Of a stretch of 64,000 nucleotides of DNA, positions 1 through 22,446 are shown piece after piece. The stretch is from contig OZ076409.1 in the NCBI GenBank assembly GCA_964187785.1, forward strand, positions 72,604,001 to 72,668,000, in the 5' to 3' direction. The notes beneath the pieces are model-generated. The model ran no database searches, had not been told where the DNA came from, and saw nothing but the letters and a program-made list of their open reading frames with translations. Every line of letters begins with the position of its first letter. The first letter of the stretch is position 1. Position numbers and translations under genes: made by a program. Source of the stretch: Amphiscolops sp. MND2022 (Eukaryota).

Positions 1-1809
1 AAATTAGCGCCCCCCACCGGGTTCCATACCCCGGAAAATTTTTTTCTGGCCACACGGGCGACCGTTAGGGGGTCATTTTAGGGGTAAAATTCATATTGGG
101 CCACATAACTTTTTTTCTGTTGATTTAAAACTTTGGGACCCTGCTAAAAGTTTCTTGACCGTGTTGCAGGGGCCCCGGAGGTCCAAACCAAATTTTTCTA
201 TCTTGAAGCTATCTCCAAGTACCCCCCCGCTCAAACCGTTATTTTCCCGGAAACGCAGGTTTTTGACCCGGAAGGAGTCGTCTGAGCGCGGGGTCGTTAG
301 GTGATGTATTGGGGACGGCCTTGAGACGAAGTGGGGGACATGTAGTTTGCCAACCTCAATTTACCCCCCGGACGGGAAATGACCGTTATATGAGCGGGAA
401 AAATGCCCCCCTCCACGTTTTACCGCTATTTCCGGTGTGAAGGAGTGGGAGTAGCGCGTCGGGTGCCATATATCAAAAGTAGGTTTAAACAAGGACCTAT
501 CGGAAACATGTGGTTTGGGACCCCCTGGACCAACCCGTAAGCAGGAAATGGGGCTTCCGGCCCGTTTTTTTTACGGTTAAAAACGGAAAATGGGCATTGA
601 GGGGTAAATATCTCGTGAACGCGTGGAGCTACGGTGTCCTTCACTACTACAAGGTTTCATACCCATGATATGGTGCCTTCAGGGGGGCAAACAGATTTCC
701 GCTATCTATCACCGTTACCGACTTGGCCCCCCAGCCTAACCGCTATTTGACCGGAAATGTCAGTTTTTGAGCCCTAAGGGTCGGTCCGAGCGTGGCATCG
801 TTAGGTAACTTATTGTATTACTCAATGAGACTAGTTGGGGGATATAGTTTCAGTCACCCCCCGTTACCCCTTGGGACCGGAAATGACCGTTATGTGGGTA
901 AAATTGCAATTTTTGTACTTTTTGAAGGGCAATTAGGTGCGGAAGGAGTGGTAATAGGTGCTTGGACACTATTTGAGGTAAGGGAGGACGTGAGGCGAGC
1001 ATTCAGAAATAACCGTTATGATGACCCCAAAGTCCCCCTGGTACCGTAAACGACCGGAAATGGTCGAATTTTGTGTCTATTGAGTACAAATGTTTGGTGT
1101 TTTATGAATAAAAGTACCTATTAGGTGTTTCGACGGTTTGCAGTAGTGAACATAGTCATGAAACCTTGTGGGGGGTAACGGTATATAGCACCGGAATTCC
1201 GAACCGTTGGAGACAGGATATGTTTTTTGGTCTTAAAATGTCTTTCGGCGTACTTTTGTCGACTATTATGGACTATTTTTCAAAAATAAAGTTTTTCCAT
1301 ATAGTTTCAGAGACTCCGAAACCTCAAACAACATAACCGTTACCTTATGATAGCCTTTCAAGTTGGCCTGGTGTCAACTTGGAAGGGCTATCCTTCAAAA
1401 ATCGTTAATCAAGTGTGTTTTTGGGTATGTTTTTATCATTTTAGAATCAATTAGAGCTCCAAGAAAAGTTTGCCAACGACAAAAACTATGTCGTGATGAT
1501 TCCGTTATTAGAACGATGGTTAACAAAATGTTGATAAAGTTGATTTTTTACATTTCAAATGTGTCCTAAAAGCCAGAAAACCTCTTTACCAAAAAAATGG
1601 TATTGATTGAATTGTATATAACAGGTAATAAAAGTTCAAATTGATTATTACGTTTCATTATTCAAGCTAAAAATTCATAACATAGTTTAATTAACGTCAA
1701 CGCCACATACTTTACATCAACGCCCACTGTCTGTGGGCATGCCGAGGCATGCCCTTCGACGACGTATACCAAATACATACCCAAACGACGCCCGTACATG
1801 CCGGGCTAG
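1..1809 (+). mobile_element. U0, family A short cassette (5'-truncated by window), putative non-autonomous Helitron-like/rolling-circle element
   Basis: Aligns to 1810-3779 at an offset of ~1970 bp; ends with core (1729-1767), module and CTAG. Confidence 0.6.
1735..1754. promoter_or_regulatory. p53/p63/p73-type response element GGGCATGCCG-AGGCATGCCC (representative; identical at all 26 unit ends, last copy 62526-62545)
   Basis: Two abutting decamers match RRRCWWGYYY at 19 of 20 positions, both with CATG cores and no spacer. It is also a perfect 20-bp inverted repeat apart from the 2 central bases. Confidence 0.6.
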
Positions 1810-3779
1810 GTGCGGGGGGAAACCCCATCCCTTATCTTGGAGGATTCGGGTAGGGTCCTGAATCCGAGTTCAGTGCCGCCAGCTCTCAGTAGAAATCTGG
1901 GAAATTTTTTGCGATCTCGTGATCTAACCATAGGATTTTAAAGTTGGAGCGGCCCCCACCAGATTTTCCAAAGTTATTCGCCCCCCACCGGGTTCCAGCG
2001 TGATTGAAATATTTTGTCGGGGTACACGGGCGACCGTTAGGGGTCATTTTAGGGGTAAAATTTATATCCGGTCGCATAACTTTTTTCCTGTTGGTTTAAA
2101 ACTTTGGGACCCTGCTAAAAGTTTCTTGACCGTGTTGCGGTGGCTCCGGAGGTCCGAACCAAATTTTTCTATCTTGAAGCTATCTCCAAGTACCCCCCCG
2201 CCCAAACCGTTATTTTTCCGGAAACGCCGGTTTTTGACCCGGAAGGAGTCGTCTGAGCGCGGGGTCGTTAGGTGATGTTTTGGGGACGGCCTCGAGACGA
2301 AGCGGGGGATATATAGTTTGCCGACCCCAGTTTACCCCCCGCACGGGAAATGACCGTTATATGAGCGGGAAAAATGCCCCCCTCCACGTTTTACCGCTAT
2401 TTCCGGTGTGAAGGAGTGGGAGTAGCGCGTCGGGTGCCATATATCAAAAGTAGGTTTAGACAAGGATCTATCGGAAACATGTGGTTTGGGACCCCCTGGA
2501 CCAACCCGTTAGCAGGAAATGGGGCTTCCGGCCCGTTTTTTTACGGTTAAAAACGGAAAATGGGCATTGAGGGGTAAATATCTCGTGAACGCGTGGAGCT
2601 ACGGTGTCCTTCACTACTACAAGGTTTCATACCCATGATATGGTGCCTTCAGGGGGGCAAACAGATTTCCGCTATCTATCACCGTTACGGACTTGGCCCC
2701 CCAGCCTAACCGCTAAGTGACCGGAAATGTCACTTTTTGAGCCCAAAGGGTCGGTCCCAGCCAGGGAACGTTAGGTAACTTATTGTAGTACTCATTGAGA
2801 CGAGTTGGGGGACATAGTTTCAGTCACCCCCCGTTACCCCTTGGGACCGGAAATGACCGTTATGTGAGTAAATTTGCCATTTTTGTCCTATTTGAAGGGC
2901 ATTTAGATGCGGAAGGAGTGGTAATAGGTGCTTGGACACTATATGAGGTAAGGGAGGACGTGAGGCGAGCATTCGGACATAACCGTTATGTTGACCCTAA
3001 AGTCCCCCTGGTACCGTAAACGACCGGAAATGGTCAAATTTTGTGGCTATTGGGTACAAATGTTTGGTATTTTGTAAATAAAAGTATCTATTAGGTGTTT
3101 CGACGGTTTGCAGTAGTGAACATAGTCATGAAACCTTGTGGGGGGTAACGGTATATAGCACCGGAATTCCGAACCGTTGGAGACAGGATAGGTTTTTTGG
3201 TTTTAAAATGTCTTTCGGCGTACTTTTGTCGACTATTATGGACTATTTTTAAAAATTAAAGTTTTTCCATATAGTTTCAGAGACTCCGAAACCTCAACCA
3301 ACATAACCGTTACCTTATGATAGCCTTTCAAGTTGGCCTGGTGTCAACTTGGAAGGGCTATCCTTCAAAAATCGTTAATCAAGTGTGTTTTTGGGTATGT
3401 TTTTATCATTTTAGAATCAATTAAAGCTCCAAGAAAAGTTTGCCAACGACAAAAACTATGTCGTGATGATTCCGTTATTAGAATGATGGTTAACAAAATG
3501 TTGATAAAGTTGATTTTTTACATTTCAAATGTGTCCTAAAAGCCAGAAAACCTCTTTACCAAAAAAATGGTATTGATTGAATTGTATATAACAGGTAATA
3601 AAAGTTCAAATTGATTATTACGTTTCATTATTCAAGCTAAAACTTCATAACAAAGTTTAATTAACGTCAACGCCACACACTTTACATCAACGCCCACCGT
3701 CTGTGGGCATGCCGAGGCATGCCCTTCGACGACGTATACCAAATACATACCCAAACGACGCCCGTACATCCCGGGCTAG
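1810..3779 (+). mobile_element. U1, family A short cassette (1970 bp)
   Basis: Head GTGCGGGGGGAAACCCC; GC-richer body; ends with core, ACCAAATACATACCC module and CTAG. Confidence 0.6.
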
Positions 3780-5319
3780 GTGGGCGGGGGTAATTCCCCA
3801 ACAAAAATTACGGCCGGCGGGTTGGGTCCTGCCGGACGTCAAATAGCAAAGAATATCTAGTAGGAAACGGCGACACAGAATCGCGATTTTTAAATCTAAC
3901 CACAATTTTTTGGACTTGGAGTGCATGCGGCCCTGAAATGCCCATACGAATCGAAGTTCCTGCTGACGTTAAGCGATTGAAATAATATATAAAAAGTTAT
4001 GGCCCATTTTTCACTCACATAGAAGGGTAAAATGAGGAAATTTTTAACAAAGTCGCTGATAACTCAAAATGTGTTAATTTTTGGACATTGACTGTGAAAC
4101 AAGCTTGGAACCTTCATTTCGTGGCTGTGGCATTGCACTGAACACAAAAGATGTAAAGTTTTTACATTTTTTGAAAATTCGACATTTCTGAAATTTTTTT
4201 CACTACTATCAGTACCCCATATGTCAAAAACGCTTCAGAAAAAATTTTTTATTTGCTTTAAATTGGAAACCTTGGTATCCATGGTTTCTGTCGGAACCTA
4301 CTCGCAGCCAAACACTCAACAGTTTGCATCCAATGTGAAAATAAAATTTTTTTCGGGGTCATAAGCGTTTCACAAGGATTTCTCAACTTAGTATTATTTT
4401 ACAAAATGGTCATTTTGAACACAATATTTTCATCGAGGCTTGTCGGCTATAGCCTTAATGTTCTAGAACGGTCCCACTGGCAACGTAGGAACCATTTATA
4501 GTAATGGAAAGTAATAAAAAAATATTTTCACCCGGTCTTCAGTCATTTTTCAGTCATTCGGAACTTAACTTAGAAAAATTTCGACCAAAATACCCATTTT
4601 TTGTCAGGTCGAAAATTCAAATTCAGATTTTTAAGCAAAATTATTAACTCTGACGTAACCCATGGGGCCCATAATACTCAAAACAACGATTGACACTGGT
4701 ATCAATGGCTTCAATAACATATGAGTCGCGATAAGACGTTATTTTGAGCATTACGTCTCAATTGAGGTAAAGATCTCGCAAGCCAGTGATCACAGTGAAA
4801 TGTGATTTCATCAAAAATTTACTCTTTTTTGTCAATCATTATGTGCACAGAATGCGTAGGGTGCGTTTCAGCACTATAATGAGGTTTTTCAAGGCATCGA
4901 GTTGCTCAAGGGGTGGTATGAGACATTTTTGTCCCATATACTACTGTATTTTCCAAAATTTTTAGCCCAATATCTGGAAATACAAACTTGACAAAATACT
5001 TTCAACTACTTTATTCAAAGGTTACAATATAGATGAACACTGTGGTTGATCAGAAACTTTCATCTCTTTCGTTTTCGGAAATATTTCCCTTCGCATGTGT
5101 TACATTCATAGCAGAAAAAAAAATCGAAACTGAAAAATACGCTATTTTGCTAATATAGAATCGCAATGATTGTGCCTAAAAACTCTTTAAACACTTCTAA
5201 CGCAACCTTACGCACCCAAAATGATCAATAATGCTATTCACAATGGTGACATGTGCTCTTTCTACGATCCTGGCTGGACAAGGTTTGCATATTTTTCAAG
5301 TACCTGTCAGCTAAATCTT

Positions 5320-5367
5320 GTGATAGCCTTTTCAGTTGGCCTTGTGTCAACTTGGGAAGGCTATCAC
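5320..5367 (+). other. Conserved internal ~45-nt stem-loop of short units (representative; family A copy at 1349-1392)
   Basis: GTGATAGCCTT..AGTTGGC-CTTGT-GTCAACT..AAGGCTATCAC inverted repeat, ~400 bp before CTAG in A and B units. Confidence 0.85.
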
Positions 5368-5725
5368 ATCAAAAAACCATCAACAAAAATAATTTTTGTT
5401 TATTGGATCTTACAGTCGATACTTTTTTTCGTGATTCTATACTACCGTTAGTATATTTCCTCAGGTCACCTTACGATTGCATTCAGTCTTTGATAAAAAC
5501 CTATGAACTCAAAGTCACATTTATATATTTTTTTGCCAAAAAAACATCAAAAATATCCAAAAAATATAAAATAGAGTCTTTAGCATTTTTACGTTTCAAG
5601 TTTCCGCCGTTATTAGGCCAATCAACGTCCTACAGCCACGCTCTCTGTCATACTGTACAACGCCACATAGTGTTGCGACGCTCACGGTCTGTGGGCATGC
5701 CGAGGCATGCCCTTCGACGACGTAT

Positions 5726-5764
5726 GCCGAATACCGCGGGCCTACGCCCGCGCTCCCCGGCTAG
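5726..5764 (+). other. Helitron-like 3' terminus: GC hairpin CGCGGGC-CTAC-GCCCGCG, 8 nt, CTAG (representative of 13 copies)
   Basis: An 18-nt hairpin ending 12 nt before the end of CTAG matches the canonical Helitron hairpin + CTRR geometry. Confidence 0.65.
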
Positions 5765-7757
5765 GTGCGGGGGGGAAACCCCATCCCTTATCTTGGAGGA
5801 TTCGGGTAGGGTCCTGAATCCGAGTTCAGTGCCGCCAGCTCTCAGTAGAAATCTGGGCATTTTTTTGCGATCTCGTGATCTAACCATAGGATTTTAAAGT
5901 TGGAGCGGCCCCCACCAGATTTTCCAAAGTTATTCGCCCCCCACCGGGTTCCAGCGTGATTGAAATATTTTGACGGGGTACACGGGCGACCGTTAGGGGT
6001 CATTTTGGGGGTAAAATTTATATCCGGTCGCATAACTTTTTTCCTGTTGGATTAAAACTTTGGGACCCTGCTAAAAGTTTCTTGACCGTGTTGCGGGGGC
6101 TCCGGAGGTCCAAACCAAATTTTTCTATCTTGAAGCTATCTCCAAGTACCCCCCCGCCCAAACCGTTATTTTTCCGGAAACGCAGGTTTTTGACCCGGAA
6201 GGAGTCGTCTGAGCGCGGGGTCGTTAGGTGATGTATTGGGGACGGCCTTGAGACGAAGCGGGGGATATATAGTTTGCCGACCCCAGTTTACCCCCCGGAC
6301 GGGAAATGACCGTTATATGAGCGGGAAAAATGCCCCCCTCCACGTTTTACCGCTATTTCCGGTGTGAAGGAGTGGGAGTAGCGCTTCGGGTGCCATATAT
6401 CAAAAATAAGTTTAGACAAGGACCTATCGGAAACATGTAGTTTGGGACCCCCTGGACCAACCCGTTAGCGGGAAATGGGGCTTCCGCCTCCTTTTTTTAC
6501 TGCTAAAACCGTAAAATGGGCATTGAGGGGTAAATATCTCGTGAACGCGTGGAGCAATCGTGTCCATCACTACTACAAGGTTTCATACCCATGATATGGT
6601 GCCTTCAGGGGGGCAAACAGATTTCCGCTATCTATCACCGTTACCGACTTGGCCCCCCAGCCTAACCGCTATGTGACCGGAAATGTCACTTTTTGAGCCC
6701 AAAGGGTCGGTCCCAGCCGGGGAACGTTAGGTAACTTATTGTAGTACTCAATGAGACGAGTTGGGGGATATAGTTTCAGTCAACCCCCGTTACCCCTTGG
6801 GACCGGAAATGACCGTTATGTGGGTAAATTTGCAATTTTTATACTCTTTGAAGTGTATTTAGGTGCGGAAGGAGTGGTAATAGGTGCTTGGACACTATAT
6901 GATGTAATGGAGGTCGTGAGGAGAGCATTCGGAAATAACCGTTATGTTGACCCCAAAGTCCCCCTGGTACCGTTAACGACCGGAAATGGCCAAATTTTGT
7001 GTCTATTGGGTACAAATGTTTGGTATTTTATGGATAAAAGTACCTGGAAGGTGTTTTAAAGGCCTCCAGAAGTGAACATAGTCATGAAACCTTGTGGGGG
7101 GTAACGGTATATAGCATCGGAAGTCCAAACCGTTGGTCACAGAATAGGTTTTTTGGTTTCAATATGTCTTTAGGCATAGTTTTGTGGGTTGAATCGTCAT
7201 AATATCAACTAATACGGACTTTTTTCGGAAATAAAATTTTTTCACATTAGTTTCAGGGACCTCCAATGCTTCAGTCAAAATAACCGTTACATTTTGATAG
7301 CCTTTCAAGTTGACCTGGTGTCAACTTGGAAGGGCTATCCTTCTAAAATCGTTAATCAACAGTGTTTTTGGGTAGGTATATGTTGCATTAGTACCAATTA
7401 GAGCTTCATCAACAGTTTGCCAACGGCAAAAACGATGTCGTGATAATTCCGTTATAAAAATATTAGTTAACAAATTGTTTTCAAAGTTGATTTTTTCCAT
7501 TAAAAATGTGTCCTAATGCCACCAAATTGAATAAAATAATAAATGGTATTGACTAAAACTAAATAACAATGAAAAAGAAGATCAACATTTTTATTAGGTC
7601 TCATTATGGAAGCAGAAACCTCACGTTTTAACTTAATTAACGTCAACGCCACATACTTTACATCAACGCCCACCGTCTGTGGGCATGCCGAGGCATGCCC
7701 TTCGACGACGTATACCAAACAACCTCCATATCTACACCCACCCGCGGTAGCAGCTAG
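5765..7757 (+). mobile_element. U3, family A short cassette with divergent 3' part (1993 bp)
   Basis: Near-identical to U1 until ~7045, then more diverged; different terminal module. Confidence 0.6.
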
Positions 7758-9741
7758 GTGGGCGGGGGTAATTCCCCAACAAAAATTACGGCCGGCGGGT
7801 TGGGTCCTGCCGGACGTCAAATAGCAAAGAATATCTAGTAGGAAACGGCGACACAGAATCGCGATTTTTAAATCTAACCACAATTTTTTGGACTTGGAGT
7901 GCATGCGGTCCTGAAATGCCCATACGAATCGAAGTTCCTGCTGACGTTAAGCGATTGAAATAATATATAAAAAGTTATGGCCCATTTTTCACTCACATAG
8001 AAGGGTAAAATGAGGAAATTTTTAACAAAGTCGTTGATAACTCAAAATGTGTTAATTTTTGGACATTGACTGTGAAACAAGCTTGGAACCTTCATTTCGT
8101 GGCTGTGGCATTGCACTGAACACAAAACATGTAAAGTTTTTACATTTTTGAAAATTCGACATTTTTGAAATTTTTTTCACTACTATCAGTACCCTATATG
8201 TCAAAAACGCCTCAGAAAATAATTTTTATTTGCTTTAAATTGGAAACCTTGGTATCCATGGTTTCTGTCGGAACCTACTCGCAGCCAAACACCCAACAGT
8301 TTGCATCCAATGTGAAATAAAAAATTTTTTCGAGGTCATAAGCGTTTCACAAGGATTTCTCAACTTAGTTTCAATTTACAAATTGGTCATATTGAACACA
8401 ATATTTTCATCGAAGCTTGTCAGATACCGCCCTAATGCTCACTAATGGGCCTACTCGCAACGTTGGAACCGTTTATAGTAATAGAAAGTTTAAAAAAAAT
8501 ATTTTCACCCGGTCTTCAGTCATTTTTCAGTCATTCGGAACTTTACTTAGAAAAATTTCGACCAAAATACCCATTTTTTGTCAGGTCGAAAAATCAAATT
8601 CACATTTTTAAGCAAAATTATTAACTCTGACGTAACCCATGGGGCCCATAATACTCAAAACAACGATTGACACTGGTATCAATGGCTCCAATAACATATG
8701 AGTCGCGATAAGACGTTATTTTGAGCAATACGTCTCAATTGAGGTAAAGATCTCGCAATCCAGCGATCACTGTGAAATGTGATTTCATCAAAAATTTACT
8801 CATTTTTGTCAATCACTATGTGCAGAGAATGCGTAGGGTGCGTTTCAGCACTATAATGAGGTTTTTGAAGGCATCGAGTTGCTCAAGGGGTGGTATGAGA
8901 CATTTTTGTCCCATATACTACTGTATTTTCCAAATTTTTTAGCCCAATATCTGGAAATACAAATTTGACAAAATACTTTCAACTACTTTATTCAGAGGTT
9001 ACAATATAGATGAACACTGTGGTTGATCAGAAACTTTCATCTCTTTCGTTTTCCGAAATAATTTCCTTCATATGTGTTACATTTGTAGCAGAAAAAAAAA
9101 TCGATACTGAAAAATACGCTATTTTGCTAATATAGAATCGCAATGATTGTGCCTAAAAACTCTTTAAACACTTCTAACGCAACCTTACGCACCCAAAATG
9201 ATCGAAAATGCTATTCACAATGGTGACATGTGCTCTTTCAACGATCCTGACTGAACAATTTTCGCAAATTATTCAAGTACCTGTTAACTGAATCTCGTGA
9301 TAGCCTTTTAAGTTGGCCTTGTGTCAACTTGGGAAGGCTATCACATCAAAAAATTTGCAACAAAAATACATTTTGTTTATTGGAAATGACAGTCGATGTA
9401 TAATTTTGTGATTCTATACTACCGTTAGTACCTTCCATTAAGTCACCTGACGATTGCATTCAGTCTTTGATAAATACCAATGAACTCGAAGTCATATTTA
9501 TAAATTTTGTGCTAAAAATAAACATAAAAATTATCCAAATTATTTAAAATTGAGTCTTTACCGTTTTTGTTTTTCTTTTTCTACTGTTATTAGGCCCATC
9601 AACTTCCTACAGCCACGCTCTCTGTCATACCGTACAACGCCACATAGTGTTGCGACGTGCACAGTCTGTGGGCATGCCGAGGCATGCCCTTCGACGACGT
9701 ATGCCGAATACCGCGGGCCTACGCCCGCGCTCCCCGGCTAG
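7758..9741 (+). mobile_element. U4, family B short cassette (1984 bp, head B1)
   Basis: Bounded by CTAG|GTG junctions; homologous to U2. Confidence 0.6.
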
Positions 9742-11725
9742 GTGGGCGGGGGTAATTCCCCAACAAAAATTACGGCCGGCGGGTTGGGTCCTGCCGGACG
9801 TCAAATAGCAAAGAATATCTAGTAGGAAACGGCGACACAGAATCGCGATTTTTAAATCTAACCACAATTTTTTGGACTTGGAGTGCATGCGGCCCTGAAA
9901 TGTCCATACGAATCGAAGTTCCTGCTGACGTTAAGCGATTGAAATAATATATAAAAAGTTATGGCCCATTTTTCACTCACATAGAAGGGTAAAATGAGGA
10001 AATTTTTAACAAAGTCGCTGATAACTCAAAATGTGTTAATTTTTGGACATTGACTGTGAAACAAGCTTGGAACCTTCATTTCGTGGCGGTGGCATTGCAC
10101 TAAACACAAAAGATGTAAAGTTTTTACATTTTTTGAAAATTCGACTTTTTTGAAATTTTTTTCACTACTATCAGTACCCCATATGTCAAAAACGCCTCAG
10201 AAAAAAATTTTTATTTGCTTTAAATTGGAAACCTTGGTATTCATGGTTTCTGTCGGAACCTACTCGCAGCCAAACACCCAACAGTTTGCATCCAAAGTGA
10301 AAATAAAATTTTTTTCGGGGTCATAAGCGTTTCACAAGGATTTCTCAACTTAGTATTAATTTACAAAATGGTCATTTTGAACACAATATTTTCATCGAGG
10401 CATGTCGGCTATAGTCCTATTGCTCACGAACGGTCCTACTGGCAACGTAATAACCATTTATAGAAATGTAAAGTTATAAAAAAAATTTTTCACCCGGTCT
10501 TCAGTCATTTTTCAGTCATTCGGAACTTAACTTAGAAAAATTTCGACCAAAATATCCATTTTTTGTCAGGTCGAAAAATCAAATTCAGATTTTTAAGCAA
10601 AATTATTAACTCTGACGTAACCCATGGGGCCCATGATACTCAAAACAACGATTGACACTGGTATCAATGGCTCCAATAACATATGAGTCGCGATAAGACG
10701 TTATTTTGAGCATTACGTCTCAATTGAGGTAAAGATCTCGCAAGCCAGCGATCACTGTGAAATGTGATTTCATCAAAAATTTACTCTTTTTTGTCAATCA
10801 CTATGTGCACAGAATGCGTAGGGTGCGTTTCAGCACTATAATGAGGTTTTTGAAGGCATCGAGTTGCTCAAGGGGTGGTATGAGACATATTTGTCCCATA
10901 TACTACTGTATTTTCCAAAATTTTTAACCCAATATCTGGAAATACCAACTTGACAAAATACTTTCAACTACTTTATTCAAAGGTTACAATATGGATGAAC
11001 ACTGTGGTTGATCAGAAACTTTCATCTCTTTCGTTTTCCGAAATATTTCCTTTCGCATGTGTTACATTCGTAGCAGAAAAAAAAATCGAAACTGAAAAAT
11101 ACGCAATTTTGCTAATATAGAATCGCAATGATTGTGCCTAAAAACTCTTTAAACACTTCTAACGCAACCTTACGCACCCAAAATGATCGAAAATGCTATT
11201 CACAATGGTGACATGTGCTCTTTCTACGATCCTGGCTGGACAAGGTTTGCATATTTTTCAAGTACCTGTCAGCTAAATCTTGTGATAGCCTTTTCAGTTG
11301 GCCTTGTGTCAACTTGGGAAGGCTATCACATCAAAAAACCATCAACGAAAATAATTTTTGTCTATTGGATCTTACAGTCGATACTTTTTTTCGTGATTTT
11401 ATACTACCGTTAGTATATTTCATCAGGTCACCTTACGATTGCATTCAGTCTTTGATAAAAACCTATGAACTCAAAGTCACATTTATATATTTTTTTGCCA
11501 AAAAAAACATCCAAAATATCTAAAATATATAAAATAGAATCATTAACATTTTTACAGTTCAAGTTTCTGCCGTTATTAGGCCAATCAACGTCCTAGAGCC
11601 ACATCCTGTCATACTGTACAACGCCACAAAGTGTTGCGACGTGCACAGTCTGTGGGCATGCCGAGGCATGCCCTTCGACGACGTATGCCGAATACCGCGG
11701 GCCTACGCCCGCGCTCCCCGGCTAG
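9742..11725 (+). mobile_element. U5, family B short cassette (1984 bp, head B1)
   Basis: Bounded by CTAG|GTG junctions; homologous to U2. Confidence 0.6.
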
Positions 11726-13708
11726 GTGGGCGGGGGTAATTCCCCAACAAAAATTACGGCCGGCGGGTTGGGTCCTGCCGGACGTCAAATAGCAAAGAAT
11801 ATCTAGTAGGAAACGGCGACACAGAATCGCGATTTTTAAATCTAACCACAATTTTTTGGACTTGGAGTGCATGCGGCCCTGAAATGCCCATACGAATCGA
11901 AGTTCCTGCTGACGTTAAGCGATTGAAATAATATATAAAAAGTTATGGCCCATTTTTGGGTCACCGAGAAGGGCAAAATGAGGAAAATTTTAACTAAGTC
12001 GCTGATAACTCAAAATGTGTTAATTTTTGGACATTGACTGTGAAACAAGCTTGGAACCTTCATTTCGTGGCTGTGGCATTGGACTGAACACAAAAGATGT
12101 AAAGTTTTTACATTTTTTGAAAATTCGACATTTTTGATTTTTTTTTCACTAGTATCAGCACCCCATATGTCAAAAACGCCTCAGAAAAAAATTTTTATTT
12201 GCTTTAAATTGGAAACCTTGGTATCCATGGTTTCTGTCGGAACCTACTCGCAGCCAAACACCCAACAGTTTGCATCCAATGTGAAAATAAAAATTTTTTC
12301 TGGGTCATAAGCGTTTCACAAGGATTTCTCAACTTAGTATTAATTTACAAAATGGTCATTTTGAACACAATATTTTCATCGAGGCTTGTCGGCTATAGCC
12401 TTAATGTTCTAGAACGGTCCCACTGGCAACGTAGGAACCATTTATAGTAATGGAAAGTAATAAAAAAATATTTTCACCCGGTCTTCAGTCATTTTTCAGA
12501 CATTCGGAACTTATCTTAGAAAAATTTCGTCTCAAACACCCATTTTTTGACAGGTCGAAAAATCAAATTAGGATTTTTAAGCACAATTATTAACTCTGAC
12601 GTAACCCTTGGGGCCCATGATACTCAAAACAACGATTGACACTGTTATCAATGGCTCCAATAACATATGAGTCGCGATAAGACGTTATTTTGAGCAATAC
12701 GTCTCAATTGAGGTAAACATCTCGCAAGCCTGGGATCACAGTGGAATGTAAATTCATCAAAAGTTTACTCATTTTTGTCAATCACTATGTGCACAGAGTG
12801 CGTAGGGTGAGTTCCAGCACTATAATGAGGTTTTTGAAGGCATCGGGTTGCTCAAGGGGTGGTATGAGACATTTTTTTTCTATATACTACTGTATTTTCC
12901 AAAATGTTTAGCCCATTATCTGGAAAAACTAACTTGACAAAATACTTTCAATGATTTTATTCAAAGGCTACAATGTAGATGAACCCAGTGGTTGATCAGA
13001 AACTTTCATCTCTTTCGTTTTCCGAAATATTTCCCTTCGCATGTGTTACATTTGTAGCAGAAAAAAAATCGAAACTGAAAAATACGATATTTTGCTAATA
13101 TAGAATCGCAATGATTGTGTCTAAAAACTCTTTAAACACTTCTAACGCGACCTTACGCACCCAAAATGATCAAAAATGCTATTCACAATGGTGACATGTG
13201 CTCTTTCAACGATCCTGACTGAACAATTTTCGCAAATTATTCAAGTACCTGTTAACTGAATCTCGTGATAGCCTTTTAAGTTGGCCTTGTGTCAACTTGG
13301 GAAGGCTATCACATCAAAAAATTTTCAACAAAAATACTTTTTGTTTATTGGAAATGACAGTCGATATATAATTTCGTGATTCTATACTACCGTTAGTACC
13401 TTCCATTAAGTCACCTGACGATTGCTTTCAGTCTTTGATAAATACCTATGAACTCGAAGTCTTATTTATAAATTTTGTGCTAAAAATAAACATCAAAACT
13501 ATCCAAATTATTTAAAATTGAGTCTTTACCGTTTTTGTTTTTCTTTTTCTACTGTTATTAGGCTCATCAACTTCCCACAGCCACGCTCTCTGTCATTAGT
13601 ACAACGCCACATAGTGTTGCGACGTGCACGGTCTGTGGGCATGCCGAGGCATGCCCTTCGACGACGTATGCCGAATGCACTGCGGCGACGCCCGCAGTCC
13701 AAGGCTAG
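11726..13708 (+). mobile_element. U6, family B short cassette (1983 bp) with a unique terminal module
   Basis: Body nearly identical to U8; ends ACTGCGG-CGACGC-CCGCAGT-CCAAGG-CTAG. Confidence 0.6.
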
Positions 13709-14520
13709 GTGGGGGGGATATATCTCCACTTTTTTTGCGACCGCGGGTAGGGTCCTGTCGGGAGCTTCTATTTACCAAGCTTACGGCGCTATATACTAGA
13801 GAAAATTTTTCCGGCACCGAACTTTTTTTTGAACCATAGGATTTGTACCATTTTTTGCATGCGGCCCTAATTTGGGCATACAAGACGAAGTTCCTGCTGA
13901 CGTTAAGCGATGGTTTCATTGTGTAACGAGATATAGCCACTTTTTGGTGCGAATTTTGAGGTATTTTTGAGAAAAATTTTACAAACAGCTCGAATGCAAA
14001 AAATTGAAAAACTTGTGACAATCGACCTATCACTGGTTTAAACCTTCGATTCTTTGCCCTAGCAATGCACTAGACCCAAAAGATCTAAAACTTTTACATT
14101 TTCCAAAAATTTGACCAAATTGACTCGGGTTTCACTACTATATGTAACCAATGTGACAAAAACACCTCAGAAAAAAATTTTTATTTGCTTAAATTTAGAA
14201 ACCTTGGTATCCATGGTTTCTGTCGGAACCTACTCGCAGCCAAACACTCAACAGTTTGCATCCAATGTGAATTTAAATTTTTTTTCGAGGTCATAGGTGT
14301 TTCACAAGGATTTCACAACTTAGTTTCATATTACAAATTGGTCATTTTCAACATCATATTTCCATCGAGGCATGTCGGATAGAGTGTTATTGCTTACGAA
14401 CGGTCCTACTGGCAACGTGTTAACCATTTATAGAAATACAAAGTTATAAAAAAATTTTTTCACCCGTTCTTCCATCATTTTTCAGACATTCGGAACTTAT
14501 CTTAGAAAAATTTCGTCTCA

Positions 14521-15700
14521 AAAACCCATTTTTTGTCAGGTCGAAAACTCAAATTCAGCTTTTTAAGCACAATTATTAACTCTGACGTAACCAGTGGGGC
14601 CCATGATACTCAAAACAACGATTGGGGTTGGTACCATTGGCTCAAATAACATATGAGTCGCGATAAGACGTTATTTTTAGCCATACGTCTCAATTGAGGT
14701 AAACATCTCGCAAGCCAGGGATCTCTGTGAAATGTGATTTCATCAAAAAGTTACCCATTTTCGCCAATTACTATGTGCACAGAGTGCGTAGGGTGAGTTT
14801 CAGCACTATAATGAGGTTTTTGAAGGATTCGGGTTGCTCAAAGGGTGGTATGAGACATTTTTTTCCCATATACTACTGTATTTTCCAAAAATTTTAGCCC
14901 ATTATCTGGAAAAACTAACTTGACAAAATACTTTCAGTTACTCTATTCGAAGCTTAGAATATAGATGAACACTGTGGTTGATCAGAAACTATTAACTATT
15001 TTGTTTTTAGAAAAAAACTGCCTTGCATGTGTTACATTAGTGGCAGGAAAAATACCAGTAGCTCCAAAAATCAAAAATTTGGACGGACAGACTTCCAATG
15101 ATGCAAAACAAAAACGTTTCAACAACTTCTGACGCCACTTTTTTTACCCAAGAGGTTCGAAAACACCATTAACAATGCTGACATTCGCAATAAATAAGAT
15201 CGAGGTCTATTTACTAACACTTAGGTTTTAAATTTTTTTCTCGGAAACCCATTATTGTCAGGTCGCAAATTCAAATTTGGTTTTGGAAGCAATACTTTTC
15301 ACTCTGAAGCAAACCGTTGGGCCCAAAATACTCAACAACAACAAAAAGACTATCACCATATGCTCTAATAACATATGAGATGCGACTGTATGTTTTTAAC
15401 ACAATAACTCTCATTCTGAAGTAAACATGTTGAAAGCCTTGAATCACAGTGAGAAGTGATTTCATCAAAAACTATTTCTTTTTCGTCAATCACTAAATAC
15501 ACAGAACCCGTTGTGTTAGTTTCAGTAGTGAAATGAGGTTCTACCGTAATATCGGTTGCTCAAGGTGTTGTATAAGGCAAAAACTTCCTCTTTTCTACTA
15601 ACTTCTTCAAATATTTCAACCCTTTGTCACACGAAGTTAATATTCAAAATCTCTTTGAATTGTTTCTTAAGGTTGTGGTGAATTGTTAGAACAATTACTA
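14521..15700 (+). repeat. Old ~722-bp-period direct duplication inside long cassette U7 (also present in U11, U12 and U19)
   Basis: CCCATTTTTTGTCAGGTCG (~14525) recurs as CCCATTATTGTCAGGTCG (~15248); GTGATTTCATCAAAAA at ~14734 and ~15456; GGTTGCTCAA at ~14832 and ~15554. Confidence 0.85.
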
Positions 15701-15946
15701 TGATCGAAGAATGCTAGTATTGGTGTTTGGACCATGTCCGGATGAACAAATCGCAAAATCAAGAAAAAATTGTTTCCTTTTTTGGTTATTTTGGCAGTAC
15801 TAAAAATGTTAGCTGATAAATAATTTTTTCGAAGGCACCATTGGATTCCGCTCAAAAAGTTGATTATAAGACATGTGTAATAACCCCGTATCTTTTCAAT
15901 TTAAATAAATTTAAAAAGCAAACTTTTTGACGAAAATCCTAAAAAT

Positions 15947-17284
15947 CATACCATTTCCTAAAAAATTTCAAATGCACTCCATTTGACGTATAAGAATAGC
16001 ACAGAAAACTATCATATACCGATCAACTTTACTCCCATTGTAGACTATTAGAATTTTGTTTTGATTGAATTTTGAAGAATATTAAAAAATTTTGAACCCT
16101 CCAAAAATGGACCAAAATTACACGAAAAAATTGACCTTAAAATTTTAAAATGTCAAAAAATCATCAAAACCACAACTTCTTGGGGTTCTATCAACTCCAC
16201 GTGGTCCACAGAGTACGCTAAAACAGGTTTTACCCGTTTTTGAGCAATATGTGAAAAAGCCGACATTTTTGGGAAAGAAAAACATACCATTTCCTAAAAA
16301 ATTTCAAATGCACGCCATTTGCCGTATGAGAATAGCACAGAAAACTATCACATACCGATCAACTCTACTTTCATTGTAGATGATTAGAAGTTAGTTTAAA
16401 TGAAAATTAGACGGATAATAAAAAAATATAAATCCTCCAAAAGTGGGCAAAAATTACACGAAAAAATTGTCCTTAAAATATTAAAATGTCCAAAAATCAT
16501 CAAAACCACAGCTTCTTGGGGTTCTATCAACTCCACATGGTCCACAGAGTACGCTAAAACAGGTTTTACACGTTTTTGAGCAATATGTGGAAAAGCCGAC
16601 ATTTTTGGGAAAGAAAAACATAACATTTCCTAAAAAAATTCACATGCACGCCATTTGGCGTATAAGAATAGCACAGAAAACTATCATATACCGATCAACT
16701 CTACTCCTATTGTAGATTATTAGAACTTTGTTTTGAATGAATTTTGAAGGATAATAAAAAATTTTGAACCCTCCGAAAATGGGCTAAAATTACACGAAAA
16801 AAGTGACCTTAAAATTTTAAAATGTCTAAAAATCATCAAAACCACAGCTTCTTGAGGTTCTATCAACTCCACATGGCCCACAGAGTATGCCAAACCAGGT
16901 TTTGCGCGTTTTTGAGCAAAATTTAGGAAAGCCGATTTTTTTGAGGAAGAAAAACATATCATTTCCTAAAAAACTTCAAATGCACGCCATTTGGCGTATA
17001 ACAATAGCACAGAAAACTATCACATACCAATCAACTCTACTCTTTTTGTAGATTACCAGAAGTTTGCTTAGAATAACTTTTGATGAATATTTATAAATTT
17101 TAAACCCTCCTAATATGGGCCAAAATCACACGGAAAAATTGACCCTAAGTATTAAAATGTCAGATATTCATCAAAACCCCAGCTTCTTGGGGTTCTATCA
17201 TTTCCATATGACTTTCAGTGTATACCAAACAAGTTATTAACATTGGGCGATAATTAAAAAGACCAATTTTATTCTGAAGAAAAC
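15947..17284 (+). repeat. Internal tandem repeat, 4 x 336 bp (U7)
   Basis: CATACCATTTCCTAAAAA-type starts at 15947, 16283, 16619 and 16955; the last copy is degenerate. Confidence 0.95.
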
Positions 17285-17501
17285 CATAATATGTTCAATA
17301 TAAGAAGTGAATCATTCCACATATATACCCTGTCTAATATTCTAAATTAGCAAAAAAATATATACTTGATGTTTTTTGAATGTGAGCTTCATAAAAGGTT
17401 GAGATGTGATAATACGTAAATGGAATCCAAGTTTCATCGAAAAGTCAATGGAATACGTCCAATCAACTTCAATCTTAACAATTCGATAACAAAAAACACT
17501 T

Positions 17502-17543
17502 AAGTACATTCCATCTCCCTATCGGGGAGATGAGAATGTACTT
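17502..17543 (+). other. Internal ~40-nt stem-loop of long units (also 28239-28279, 32996-33038, 49698-49738)
   Basis: AAGTACATTC-CATCTCCC..GGGAGATG-A-GAATGTACTT inverted repeat. Confidence 0.85.
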
Positions 17544-18476
17544 TTCTAAAACTAAAAACTTAGATCTTTCTATCTTTTGTAACACTTACTGTAACAGCTG
17601 AAATGATGAAAGGATAATTATTCTTCTAATAACTTCAAGATTTTTTGCTTCACCTTTTATTTCTGCAGAACAAAACCATAAGACATACATATTTTTCGCA
17701 GTTAAGTTCGACTGTATTACCCAGTGAACAAAGGTATGACAGGAAGAATACAAGTTGTCTCAAAACTTTCCCGCCTTCCAAAATCATGAAACGTCTACAC
17801 AACCAAGATAGTAAAGGAATGAATGTGGAATGCATCATTTTAGTTAAAATAAATAACGTGTAGAACTTACCTTTATCTGAAGATGATGTTGATTTATGAT
17901 CTTTAGAGGATAGTTCAATTTTTGACCATAATAGTGCGAAACTAATTATTATATGAATAATGGCGTGGAAAGCGTTCAGAAATTGCAGTATTTTCGATTC
18001 GAGCATGTATGCGTGGGTTCCTTTGGTGGCAGTAGCTTAGTGTACATGATGGAAGTTTTCGATCTATTATGATAAAATTTACTCACAAGTCTTTGTTTTT
18101 CCTATTTTTTTATGCCATTAAGTACATTCATTCTATCCCCTTCTCTGGGAATGTACGTTTGCCAAATGACTGTCATCCAAATTTTGCATTCGCGAAGAGT
18201 TTAAATACATAAACACGTCTTTAGCGTTTCCAAATCACAACCGATTAACATTTTTAAAAATTTTTTTTATGAAAATTGATAATTTGTTTTGATTTTGGTA
18301 TCTTCTACTTTTATCATCCATCATAACAAGCACGTTACCATGTCTCTCGCTTGTCTTCATTTTACAACGACACATAGCGTTCCGACTCCCACCGTCTGTG
18401 GGCATGCCGAGGCATGCCCTTCGACGACGTATGCCAACTACTTTTTATATCTACACCCGATTGCGGTAGCGGCTAG

Positions 18477-20457
18477 GTGGGCGGGGGTAATTCCCCTTCA
18501 AAAAATTCGGCCGGCGGGTTGGGTCCTGCCGGACGTCAAATAGCAGAAAATACCTATTAGGAAACGGCGACACAAAACGGCGATTTTTAAATCTAACCAC
18601 AATTTTTTGGACTTGGAGTGCATGCGGCCCTGAAATGCCCATACGAATCGAAGTTCCTGCTGACGTTAAGCGATTGAAATAATATATAAAAAGTTATGGC
18701 CCATTTTTGGGTCACCGAGAAGGGCAAAATGAGGAAAATTTTAACTAAGTCGCTGATAACTCAAAATGTGTTAATTTTTGGACATTGACTGTGAAACAAG
18801 CTTGGAACCTTCATTTCGTGGCTGTGGCATTGCACTGAACACAAAAGATGTAAAGTTTTCACATTTTTTGAAAATTCGACATTTTTGAATTTTTTTTCAC
18901 TAGTATCAGCACCCCATATGTCAAAAACGCCTCAGAAAAAAATTTTTATCTGCTTTAAATTGGAAACCTTGGTATCCATGGTTTCTGTCGGAACCTACTC
19001 GCAGCCAAACACCCAACAGTTTGCATCCAATGTGAAAATAAAAATTTTTTCTGGGTCATAAGCGTTTCACAAGGATTTCTCAACTTAGTATTAATTTACA
19101 AAATGGTCATTTTGAACACAAAATTTTCATCGAGGCTTGTCGGCTATAGGCTTAATGTTCTAGAACGGTCCCACTGGCAACGTAGGAACCATTTATAGTA
19201 ATTGAAAGTTATAAAAAAATTTTTCACCCGTTCTTCAGTCATTTTTCAGACATTCGGAACTTATCTTAGAAAAATTTCGTCTCAAACACCCATTTTTTGA
19301 CAGGTCGAAAAATCAAATTAGGATTTTTAAGCAAAATTATTAACTCTGACGTAACCCATGGGGCCCATGATACTCAAAACAACGATTGACACTGGTATCA
19401 ATGGCTCCAATAACATATGAGTCGCGATAAGACGTTATTTTGAGCAATACGTCTCAATTGAGGTAAACATCTCGCAAGCCTGGGATCACAGTGAAATGTA
19501 AATTCATCAAAAATTTACTCATTTTTGTCAATCACTATGTGCACAGAGTGCGTAGGGTGAGTTCCAGCACTATAATGAGGTTTTTGAAGGCATCGGGTTG
19601 CTCTAGGGGTGGTATGAGACATTTTTTTCTATATACTACTGTATTTTCCAAAACTTTTAGCCCATTATCTGGAAAAACTAACTTGACAAAATACTTTCAA
19701 TGATTTTATTCAAAGGCTACAATGTAGATGAACCCAGTGGTTGATCAGAAACTTTCATCTCTTTCGTTTTCCGAAATATTTCCCTTCGCATGTGTTACAT
19801 TTGTAGCAGAAAAAAAATCGAAACTGAAAAATACGCTATTTTGCTAATATAGAATCGCAATGATTGTGCCTAAAAACTCTTTAAACACTTCTAACGCGAC
19901 CTTACGCACCCAAAATGATCAAAAATGCTATTCACAATGGTGACATGTGCTCTTTCAACGATCCTGACTGAACAATTTTCGCAAATTATTCAAGTACCTG
20001 TTAACTGAATCTCGTGATAGCCTTTTAAGTTGGCCTTGTGTCAACTTGGGAAGGCTATCACATCAAAAAATTTTCAACAAAAATACTTTTTGTTTATTGG
20101 AAATGACAGTCGATATATAATTTCGTGATTCTATACTACCGTTAGTACCTTCCATTAAGTTACCTGATGATTGCTTTCAGTCTTTGATAAATACCTATGA
20201 ACTCGAAGTCTTATTTATAAATTTTGTGCTAAAAATAACCATCAAAACTATCCAAATTATTTAAAATTGAGTCTTTACCGTTTTTGTTTTTCTTTTTCTA
20301 CTGTTATTAGGCTCATCAACTTCCTACAGCCACGCTCTCTGTCATTAGTACAACGCCACATAGTGTTGCGACGTGCACAGTCTGTGGGCATGCCGAGGCA
20401 TGCCCTTCGACGACGTATGCCGAATACCGCGGGCCTACGCCCGCGCTCCCCGGCTAG
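18477..20457 (+). mobile_element. U8, family B short cassette (1981 bp)
   Basis: Bounded by CTAG|GTG junctions; body matches U6. Confidence 0.6.
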
Positions 20458-22446
20458 GTGGGCGGGGGTAATTCCCCAACAAAAATTACGGCCGGCGGGT
20501 TGGGTCCTGCCGGACGTTCAAATAGCGCGAAGCATCTAGTAGAAAACAAGGAGTCCTGAAACAGCGATTTTAAAATTGAACCGTTAGAATTTGGTTTTAG
20601 ATTGCATGCGGCCCTAAAATCCCCATACGAATGGAAGTTCCTGCTGGCGTTAAGCGATTGAAATAATATATAAAAAGTTATGGCCCATTTTTGGGTCACC
20701 GAGAAGGTCAAAATGAAGAAAATTTTAACTAAATTGCTGATAACTCAAAATGTGTTAATTTTTGGACTTTGACTGTGAAACAAGCTTGGAACCTTCATTT
20801 CGTGTCTGTGGCATTGCACTGAACACAAAAGATGTAAAGTTTTCACATTTTTTGAAAATTCGACATTTTTGAATTTTTTTTCACTACTATCAGTACACTA
20901 TATGTCAAAAACACCTCTGAAAATTTTTTTTTATTGCTTAAATTTAGCAACCTCGGTATCCATGGTTTCCGTCAGTACCTACTCGCTGCCAAACACTCAA
21001 CAGTTTGCATCCAATGTGAAAATAAAATTATTTTCGAGGTCTTAGGTGTTTCACAAGGATTTCTCAACTTAGTATCAATTTACAAATTGGTCATTTTGAA
21101 CACATTATTTTCATCGAAGCGTGTCATATACCGCCCTAATGCTCACGAACGGGCCTACTGGCAACGTTGGAACCATTTATAGTAATAAAAAGTTTTAAAA
21201 AAATTTTTTCACCCCGTCTTCAGTCATTTTACACACTTTCGGAACTTAACTTAGAAAAATTTCAACCAAAAACCCATTTTTTGTCAAGTCGAAAATTCAA
21301 CTTCAGCTTTTTAAGCAAAATAAATAAATCTGACATAACCAGTGGGGCCCATGAAACTCAAAACCACGATTGAGACTGGTATCAATGGCTCCAATAACAT
21401 ATGAGTCGCGATAAGACGCTATTTTGAGCAAAACATCTCAATTGAGGTAAAGATCTCGCAAGCCAGCGATCACTGTGAAATGTGATTTCATCAAAAATTT
21501 ACTCTTTTTTGTCAATCACTATGTGCACAGAATGCGTAGGGTGCGTTTCAGCACTATAATGAGGTTTTTGAAGGCATCGAGTTGCTCAAGGGGTGGTATG
21601 AGACATTTTTGTCCCATATACTACTGTAGTTTCCAAAAATTTTACCCCAATATCTGGAAATACAAACTTGACAAAATACTTTCAATTACTTTATTCAAAG
21701 GTTACAATATAGATGAACACTGTGGTTGATAAGAAACTTTCATCTCTTTCGTTTTCGGAAATATTTCCGTTCGCATGTGTTACATTCATAGCAGAAAAAA
21801 AAATCGAAACTGAAAAATATGCTATTTTGCTGATATAGAATCGCAATGATTGTGCCTAAAAACTCTTTAAACACTTCTAACGCAACCTTACGCACCCAAA
21901 ATGATCGAAAATGCTATTCACAATGGTGACATGTGCTCTTTCTACGATCCTGGCTGGACAAGGTTTGCATATTTTTCAAGTACCTGTCAGCTAAATCTTG
22001 TGATAGCCTTTTCAGTTGGCCTTGTGTCAACTTGGGAAGGCTATCACATCAAAAAACCATCAACAAAAATAATTTTTGTTTATTGGATCTTACAGTCGAT
22101 ACTTTTTTTCGTGATTCTATACTACCGTTAGTATATTTCATCAGGTCACCTTACGATTGCATTCAGTCTTTGATAAAAACCTATGAACTCAAAGTCACAT
22201 TTATATAGTTTTTTGCCAGAAAATAACATCAAAAATATCTAAAATATATAAAATAGAGTCTTTAACATTTTTACGTTTCAAGTTTTTGCCGTTATTAGAC
22301 CAATCAACGTCCTAGAGCCACATCCTGCCACATACTGTACAACGCCACATAGTGTTGCGACGTGCACAGTCTGTGGGCATGCCGAGGCATGCCCTTCGAC
22401 GACGTATGCCGAATACCGCGGGCCTACGCCCGCGCTCCCCGGCTAG
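20458..22446 (+). mobile_element. U9, family B short cassette, subtype B2 (1989 bp)
   Basis: Head ...GGACGTTCAAATAGCGCGAAGC; near-identical to U16, U20 and U25. Confidence 0.6.

Follow-up and report, generated by a model that had tools for sequence, protein, structure and literature searches.

The stretch of DNA analysed here (the window) comprises 64,000 nucleotides of the 1.07-Gb genome of Amphiscolops sp. MND2022 (assembly GCA_964187785.1, contig OZ076409.1, positions 72,604,001 to 72,668,000; G000:C1:72,604,001-72,668,000 in the coordinates used below), and is filled from end to end by a head-to-tail array of non-coding elements, which we read as members of a divergent Helitron-like lineage. 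An earlier note on this DNA, made from its letters, had observed that every CTAG at a unit end is followed by GTG, and all 26 plus-strand occurrences of CTAGGTG indeed read GCTAG|GTG, against 0.26 GCTAGGTG expected from shuffles; the minus-strand matches (n = 7) represent a single internal site of the unit bodies. The joins delimit units of three body types, A (~1.97 kb), B (~1.99 kb) and C (~4.76 kb), the last being B-like over its first 1.5 kb and then carrying an internal 336-bp tandem repeat. The window contains only six stop-to-stop frames, of 150-215 amino acids (frames not compared with family libraries), and a search of it against Rfam gave no matches. Its layout is as follows:

1..64000, plus strand: 25 complete units and 2 partial ones, non-coding and arranged head to tail
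1810..3779, plus strand: complete family A unit of 1,970 bp; family A also at 5765-7757 and in the partial first unit
3780..5764, plus strand: complete family B unit of 1,985 bp, one of 19 complete B units within the window
24443..29205, plus strand: complete family C unit of 4,763 bp; also at 13709-18476, 29206-33971 and 45902-50664
5761..5767, plus strand: tail-head join CTAG^GTG; empty sites put the boundary between 5764 and 5765
Plus strand: further joins after 1809, 3779, 7757, 9741, 11725, 13708, 18476, 20457, 22446, 24442, 29205, 33971, 35955, 37945, 39931, 41919, 43903, 45901, 50664, 52653, 54650, 56639, 58622, 60609 and 62597
5798..5821, plus strand: head hairpin, a variable stem around a GGG-AGGG-CC loop motif (5804-5814), ~40 nt past the GTG start

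The earlier note had left the exact cut unfixed, as tandem junctions do not reveal it, and had proposed an alignment of the flanks of solo copies. The flanks of the solo copy L053 are contiguous in its empty paralogue L050 (CTAG^AT) and those of L054 in the paralogue L117 (CTTG^AT), in both cases with no base gained or lost. Further, one satellite site is filled by different families at two loci, L250 and L257, with no duplication at L250. Since the empty sites fix the right side of the cut and solo heads preceded by a base other than G fix the left, the element is GTG…CTAG, with the cut at CTAG^GTG and no target duplication. The proposed check thus settles what the junctions could not: the solo copies end at CTAG, with no target duplication. 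The L053 copy lies in tRNA-like sequence (by eye, a tRNA gene or a tRNA-derived repeat). The different families at L250 (G000:C2:28.53 Mb) and L257 (C1:91.80 Mb) occupy the identical position in a 172-bp satellite, whose sequence also precedes a third head at C2:42.25 Mb.

The target rule was drawn from 21 bounded solo copies or mini-arrays. All 21 sites have T at −3 and T at +2, with G, A or T as the base that immediately follows the element. In 13 of them the head is preceded by CTNG; these include six of the eight for which the 5' flank was unconstrained in the search. The target is CTNG^DT or, more broadly, nTnn^DT. In larger samples, T is the second base after CTAG in 28 of 29 loci (30 were examined, one being out of register), and CT occupies −4/−3 in 88 of 89 in-register rows, as counted by eye in the first 100 of 294 rows (11 out of register), with a pattern that fixed just the final two bases preceding the head and that returned mostly array tails ending in CTGG. 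The bounded copies start with GTG (19/21), TTG (1/21) or GCG (1/21); at the other end, CTAG closes all 26 units that end in the window, CTGG is common elsewhere and one family has CTTG. Head cut, tail cut and target share the single form nTnn^nT. Heads after a non-G base gave 53 matches versus 43 in the control, so that few of these are likely to be real. A dispersed head family at G000:C4:68.03, C6:52.44, C8:17.52, C12:12.29 and 40.35 Mb has TCA before all five listed copies and CTCA before four of them, and perhaps represents a related family whose target has shifted.

A search for the Helitron_like_N domain returned a cluster of weak matches in frames of ~2,375 amino acids within the array region of the window. 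These belong to coding partners of about 15 kb (12-20 kb), situated in arrays and bounded by matching ends, which encode a Rep-helicase protein (RepHel) of 2,300-2,600 amino acids and an RPA-like protein; a tail-head join is present on at least one side of 18 of the 21 RepHel-coding copies fetched. Helitron_like_N, PIF1 and a C-terminal GIY-YIG domain all score above the Pfam cut-offs (PF14214, E 1.2e-10; PF05970, E 2.6e-11), and the HxH motif and two Tyr positions are kept in at least 90% of 17 rows. The predicted Rep fold (predicted local distance difference test, pLDDT, 75.6) matches that of Helraiser (7lcc) with an E-value of 6e-9 at 13% identity. By eye, some members seem to have an intact GIY-YIG motif and others a degenerate one. 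Neither an AP endonuclease nor DUF6570 was found in the two RepHel proteins scanned, which carry GIY-YIG instead. The coding types examined conserve a second open reading frame (ORF) of ~320 amino acids, as do relatives from metagenomes. The structural model of its product has a pLDDT of 84.9 and matches RPA with an E-value of 3.7e-5, and the Atlas returns OB-fold families for it.

The connection of these partners with the window units lies in both ends and bodies. At C1:70.55-70.57 Mb lies a coding element whose GTG head follows GCTAG and whose tail is related to the window tails; bases 142-1200 of family A are 77-80% identical to its 5' region, bases 848-1114 of family B are 69% identical to the element, and B and C match it at 69-70% over ~270-300 bases. 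A decayed RepHel copy at ~G000:C9:40.16-40.17 Mb has a tail of the CCGCACTC type seen in the window; in the upstream stretches fetched for the two dispersed, decayed copies, no head was found. On this evidence, we are highly confident that the window units are non-coding members of a RepHel–GIY-YIG lineage with the above ends and target. The earlier note's proposal of an atypical HUH-endonuclease family is borne out in that coding members with matching heads and tails encode a Y2 Rep-helicase; its Replitron-like option finds no support, because the Rep of the partners is fused to a PIF1 helicase. As for other genes of the coding copies, L086:3003-3719 and L101:6783-7658 contain a small upstream ORF with a weak match to DUF459 below the Pfam cut-off. 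Downstream of the RepHel gene at G000:C5:24.27 Mb (L305), no join was found, and ORFs of 580 and at least 1,074 amino acids, gag-pol-like and retrotransposon-like by eye, lie beyond the second ORF.

The GGG-AGGG-CC loop motif lies downstream of all 26 window joins. A perfect stem of at least 5 bp flanks the loop in 24 of 40 head types versus 15% when arms are swapped between types, the covarying stem falling at ~+30 to +65 and not being formed by a terminal repeat. The head hairpin is the structure that is kept while its sequence changes, and it is likely to be the origin signal. The earlier note had ascribed this property to the hairpins at the 3' end, which in the window are:

5735..5752, plus strand: 3' hairpin of the CGCGGGC type, the commonest tail (13 units); 7 bp, 8 nt before CTAG
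24415..24432, plus strand: 3' hairpin of the CCGCACTC type, also at ends 29205, 50664 and 54650; 8 bp, 6 nt before CTAG
37918..37935, plus strand: 3' hairpin of the CCGCGG type, also at ends 45901 and 56639; 6 nt before CTAG
33944..33961, plus strand: 3' hairpin of the CCGCCGT type, at end 33971; 7 bp, 6 nt before CTAG
13679..13698, plus strand: 3' hairpin of the ACTGCGG type, at end 13708; 7 bp, 6 nt before CTAG

On recount, the sequences, numbers, slot (6-8 nt before CTAG) and exceptions given for these hairpins all proved correct: 22 of the 26 window ends have a 7-8 bp stem located 6 or 8 nt before CTAG, ends 1809 and 3779 have merely a 4-5 bp stem abutting CTAG, and ends 7757 and 18476 have none. 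The statement that structure is kept and sequence is not calls for one qualification. Three of the five types share outer CCGC/GCGG pairs and their last 10 bases and the remaining two share a GCCCGC right arm, so that the five are relatives rather than independent sequences. Genome-wide, a stem of at least 6 bp is found in 6 of 55 tail types (drawn from fetched loci, a few being host flanks) versus 0.96 in shuffles; the 3' hairpin is enriched, yet missing from most tail types, and is no hallmark of the lineage. With this count, a conserved Helitron-type terminator slot is not supported. The 3' hairpin as a general terminator was accordingly rejected as a candidate. The tails of the RepHel-coding copies seen mostly lack such a hairpin.

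With respect to placement, a tblastn search with the Rep region at 1e-3 found no match in the canonical Helitrons or Helentrons of this genome. Trees of the Rep domain (29 lineage rows and 20 others) and of the helicase (23 and 8 rows) split the lineage from the in-genome Helitrons and Helentrons with branch supports of 100/99 and 100/100, respectively; the Helentron reference labels rest on motifs, rows without a recognisable domain were dropped, and a second Rep tree was computed without the long-branched L122. Protein searches recovered 43 and 40 relatives, along with 41 metagenome loci, several of which also encode PIF1 and GIY-YIG at 23-26% identity. In one metagenome locus (L159, 34% identity), a CTGG|GTG head with the matching loop and a long stem lies upstream of the ORF, and one further locus carries the loop motif. 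A search of viral contigs for the end pattern gave no match. Two metagenome loci with Rep-PIF1-GIY-YIG genes (L177:13308-14648 and L175:14215-15231) also contain SET, Ulp1 protease and ankyrin genes, and this gene content suggests that the hosts are eukaryotes.

Across the genome, the pattern CTAG plus head occurs at 4,172 places versus 1 in the control. One tail motif is followed by GTG[GC] 3,129 times, by GT[ACT] 25 times and by A, C or T 37 times, so that 3,129 of the 3,191 tails counted (~98%) abut a head, the count omitting tails with other G-starts downstream. The window belongs to a plus-strand array region at ~G000:C1:70.5-76.5 Mb, in which all 34 Rep matches counted by eye lie on the plus strand, and further arrays occur at many places. 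From non-array DNA we estimate that the genome offers ~6 million CTNG^DT and ~160,000 CTAGGT sites; the short target alone therefore does not explain the clustering. Families are locally enriched along the arrays, as seen by eye for instance at C1:70.46-70.50 Mb, where tails are mostly of the A type. In two other arrays the strand of RepHel matches flips from minus to plus, at ~C2:102.68 Mb (array C2:102.0-103.9 Mb) and at ~C3:2.6 Mb (array C3:2.4-3.9 Mb), such that these arrays point away from their centre; the C2 array reaches near the contig end. Within the plus-strand array of the window, an inverted B-type unit stands back to back with a head at L085 (G000:C1:72,444,500-72,446,500).

Growth by concatemers or tandem duplication predicts that neighbours are closest relatives. 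The best match of a unit is adjacent for none of the 25 units in the window and for 2 of the 48 units in 124 kb. Among these 48, similarity between adjacent units is 0.19 versus 0.17 when permuted (P 0.26), and none of the 28 near-identical pairs is adjacent or extends into a neighbour. Two units with 99% of 15-mers in common have unrelated neighbours. The 48 units fall into four discrete length classes and share one orientation, and mini-arrays of two or three units at dispersed sites (L250, L266) already mix families. Concatemers of adjacent copies are thus rejected in the window and the 124 kb, where unit order looks near-random and not concatemeric.

These observations can be joined in one account, which we consider probable: the arrays consist of GTG…CTAG Helitron-like units that are copied by the RepHel–GIY-YIG protein and inserted singly at existing tail-head joins. 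RepHel from a coding partner would bind the head (GTG and the GGG-AGGG-CC hairpin) and nick the plus strand at CTNG^GT; the helicase, with the RPA-like helper, would unwind the unit, and a second cut after the tail CTAG would allow a single-unit circle to close with a CTAG-GTG join. The differing 3' hairpins would at most aid termination in some families and would most likely derive from recombination between mosaic units. Helraiser is reported to cut a precise join of right and left terminal sequences (RTS-LTS) on the plus strand in vitro, and circles with such joins have been suggested as preferred substrates (PMC5876387). Because a tail-head join in the chromosome has exactly the sequence of the circle join, it would be the best integration substrate. 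Each insertion at a join would create one more join and keep the strand, in consequence of which arrays would lengthen, come to contain a mixture of many families and provide shelter for intact coding copies. Separately, a chimeric circle popping out of two neighbours with an intact join could explain the mosaics among B units (units 7758-62597 and flanks).

Several points weigh against this account. The order test covers 124 kb of a ~6-Mb region. B units are mosaic, their closest relative often differing between the 5' and 3' thirds, and together with the local enrichment this implies recombination or local copying at work, which could have shuffled older concatemers. We infer self-targeting from the genome pattern. 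CTNG is missing from eight of the 21 bounded sites, and the patterns by which 13 of these 21 were found constrained one or more bases before the head. No join was present in the stretch fetched for 3 of the 21 coding copies, and the RPA match has a low TM-score of 0.25. As references, the trees contain only sequences of this genome, some of them near-copies, whose labels we assigned from Pfam scores and motifs; in addition, the tree program gave a warning about long branches meeting. Conserved ends in another organism amount to one contig of the 41.

Of the alternatives, the one that the mosaic units and locally enriched families favour holds that the arrays arose as rolling-circle concatemers or tandem duplications, which were later shuffled by unequal exchange and gene conversion without any preference for joins; tandem Helitron arrays of plants and bats have been ascribed to rolling-circle replication (PMC5876387, PMC5148889). 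We deem this unlikely given the near-identical pairs described above, neither adjacent nor extending into neighbours, the unrelated neighbours of the two units with 99% common 15-mers, the frequent lack of relationship between neighbours in both body and length, and the mixture of families already present in mini-arrays. Attraction of the transposase to a chromatin region, or local hopping, with dispersed copies lost to selection, would likewise account for local family enrichment, and would make the clustering regional rather than join-specific; dispersed insertions do occur, and by eye many dispersed Rep matches are short or stop-bearing while array copies are mostly long. At the background of 0.0028 per base, 5-6 internal CTNG^DT sites per strand are expected in each 2-kb unit; nevertheless, the 48 units keep to four length classes and one orientation, and small arrays are found at many unlinked places, making a regional cause a distinctly unlikely explanation.

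The remaining two alternatives concern the identity of the elements. That these are Replitron-like elements or tyrosine-recombinase (integron-like) cassettes merely co-located with RepHel elements is suggested by the cassette-like unit order and by the resemblance of flank to end (CTNG-GT … CTAG-DT), which recalls short terminal direct repeats or recombination cores. It is very improbable in view of the Y2 Rep-helicase encoded by coding units with matching heads, tails and body, as the Rep of Replitrons is of the Y1 kind and lacks a helicase (PMC10288648); further, the scan of partner ORFs detected no recombinase family, the genome itself not having been searched for recombinases or Replitron transposases. 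The view that the units are canonical Helitrons (HLE1) with a hairpin-CTAG terminator and an altered or lost TC head could appeal to the 3' CTAG, the hairpin in 22 of the 26 window ends, the lack of target duplication and the RepHel. We find it scarcely credible: the head is GTG and bears a conserved hairpin of its own, insertion is at CTNG^DT and not A|T, most tail types lack the 3' hairpin and some end in CTGG or CTTG, and the Rep region has no tblastn match to in-genome canonical Helitrons, the lineage forming a separate branch in both trees. The empty sites refute it, unless a tree with full references were to nest these proteins inside HLE1.

The lineage is best read as divergent Helitron-like elements with IS91-like ends, lacking the termini and targets of HLE1, HLE2 and Replitrons. 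HLE1 elements start with TC, end in a hairpin and CTRR and insert at A|T, and HLE2 elements have short inverted repeats and insert at T|T (PMC11417382, PMC3627910). Like HLE1 (Helraiser, 7lcc), the present lineage has a Y2 HUH Rep with a PIF1 helicase, a 3' CTAG, no target duplication, an RPA-like accessory gene downstream and head-to-tail joins (PMC11417382, PMC5876387). Unlike HLE1, it starts with GTG, targets CTNG^DT, has an optional 3' hairpin, a head hairpin and a C-terminal GIY-YIG, matches the fold of Helraiser at just 13% identity and has 98% of its counted tails in joins; an A before and a T after the element occur together in none of the 21 sites. With HLE2 (Helentrons/Helitron2) it shares a large RepHel with a C-terminal nuclease and a hairpin near the 5' end, some relatives also having OTU. 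It differs in having neither asymmetric inverted repeats nor a T|T target, in the replacement of the AP endonuclease by GIY-YIG, and in its separate branch. Where HLE2 has a 5' T start and a T|T or T|C target, the start here is G in 20 of 21 copies and T stands both before and after the element in 0 of 21; inverted repeats of 8-15 bp or more were not found among the 48 units, in which head-tail complementarity spans 4-7 nt (mean 5.5 versus 5.7 between units). Within HLE2, FoHeli1/2 are described as having a longer target, TNAT^, with occasional self-insertion (PMC5148889), and one Sphagnum family as having captured GIY-YIG, yet with inverted repeats and TT sites (PMC11417382). A few unclassified clusters are also reported.

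A third clade outside HLE1 and HLE2, the Paramecium Helitrons, ends in CCAA and targets telomeric repeats in one orientation (PMC13085455), and is the closest eukaryotic analogue: there, too, the end (CCAA) resembles the target (the C4A2 telomeric repeat) and copies are clustered in one orientation. That clade differs in targeting host telomeric repeats rather than its own joins and in its conserved RTS stem-loop; GIY-YIG is not mentioned in the text or supplements of PMC13085455, from whose description the comparison is made. In IS91, a target tetranucleotide (CTTG or GTTC, with T at position 2 kept) lies directly beside the origin end, the terminator cut site nearly copies the target (CTCG) and insertion is oriented and free of duplication (PMC13181058). 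The CTNG before the head and the CTRG at the tail correspond to this, a likeness in working and not in membership. IS91 has a small prokaryotic Y2 transposase without fused helicase or nuclease, and self-built multi-family arrays are not described for it in that source. Replitrons, too, are HUH elements of eukaryotes; their insertion is oriented and their termini carry short repeats, but they possess a Y1 Rep without helicase, and Replitron-1 has TAAAGG repeats and an RG target (PMC10288648). The ends of the present elements, GTG and CTRG, do not repeat one another; the likeness is between flank and end.

Large transposon arrays have been described elsewhere: megabase arrays of subtelomeric Helitrons in Hydractinia (10.1101/2024.11.21.624632), arrays in Papilio bianor (10.64898/2026.07.30.741882) and plant centromeric Helitrons (as cited in PMC5148889), with centromere-associated Helitrons also reported in Meloidogyne. 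As portrayed in these sources, the Hydractinia, Papilio and plant arrays consist of one subfamily, of repeating blocks of 100-200 kb or of truncated tandem copies, unlike the full-length units, many families, precise joins and near-random order seen here. The literature searched, with Repbase, Dfam and most subscription journals outside its scope, contained no description of GTG…CTAG ends, a CTNG^DT target or self-join targeting. The RepHel–GIY-YIG lineage is now supplied with ends and a target rule, and tools that look for TC…CTRR or inverted repeats are expected to miss or misclassify it. Insertion at its own joins offers a testable route from dispersed transposons to megabase arrays without concatemer replication or unequal crossover, and the intact coding copies, short ends and defined join render the mechanism directly testable. 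In the broadest form, this would be an old, widespread rolling-circle branch distinct from HLE1, from HLE2 and from the Paramecium Helitrons, with a transposase that seeks out its own tail-head join. Dozens of families, coding and non-coding, would share a self-renewing safe harbour and assemble polarized, cassette-like megabase arrays by adding single units, and RepHel would act as a natural, sequence-directed and duplication-free integrase for a short, portable landing site; we see the case for and against this form as evenly balanced. A Helitron-type enzyme with a short landing site and no duplication would, if true, be of interest to genome engineers.

Two palindromes complete the features of the units:

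5693..5712, plus strand: subterminal 20-bp palindrome GGGCATGCCGAGGCATGCCC, which precedes all 26 joins
5322..5365, plus strand: internal 44-bp imperfect palindrome, one of 21 copies in the window, ~400-460 nt upstream of the 3' end

The palindrome GGGCATGCCGAGGCATGCCC, or one variant with both outer bases changed, is present in 105 of 140 tails sampled, and has thousands of copies clustered in arrays. The joint change of both outer bases fits either a hairpin or a symmetric binding site. A search of the literature on this palindrome found nothing specific; its sequence resembles two abutting p53-family half-sites. The 44-bp palindrome keeps a fixed distance from the 3' end, is common to the otherwise dissimilar A and B bodies and is also found in neighbouring families in L092, L094, L096 and L102, while C-type units have a different palindrome-like segment common to many short families. 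In L013 and L046, some tails are followed by 30 more tail-like bases and a second CTAG before the next head, which suggests that new tail types may come from end capture or from units inserting into other tails.

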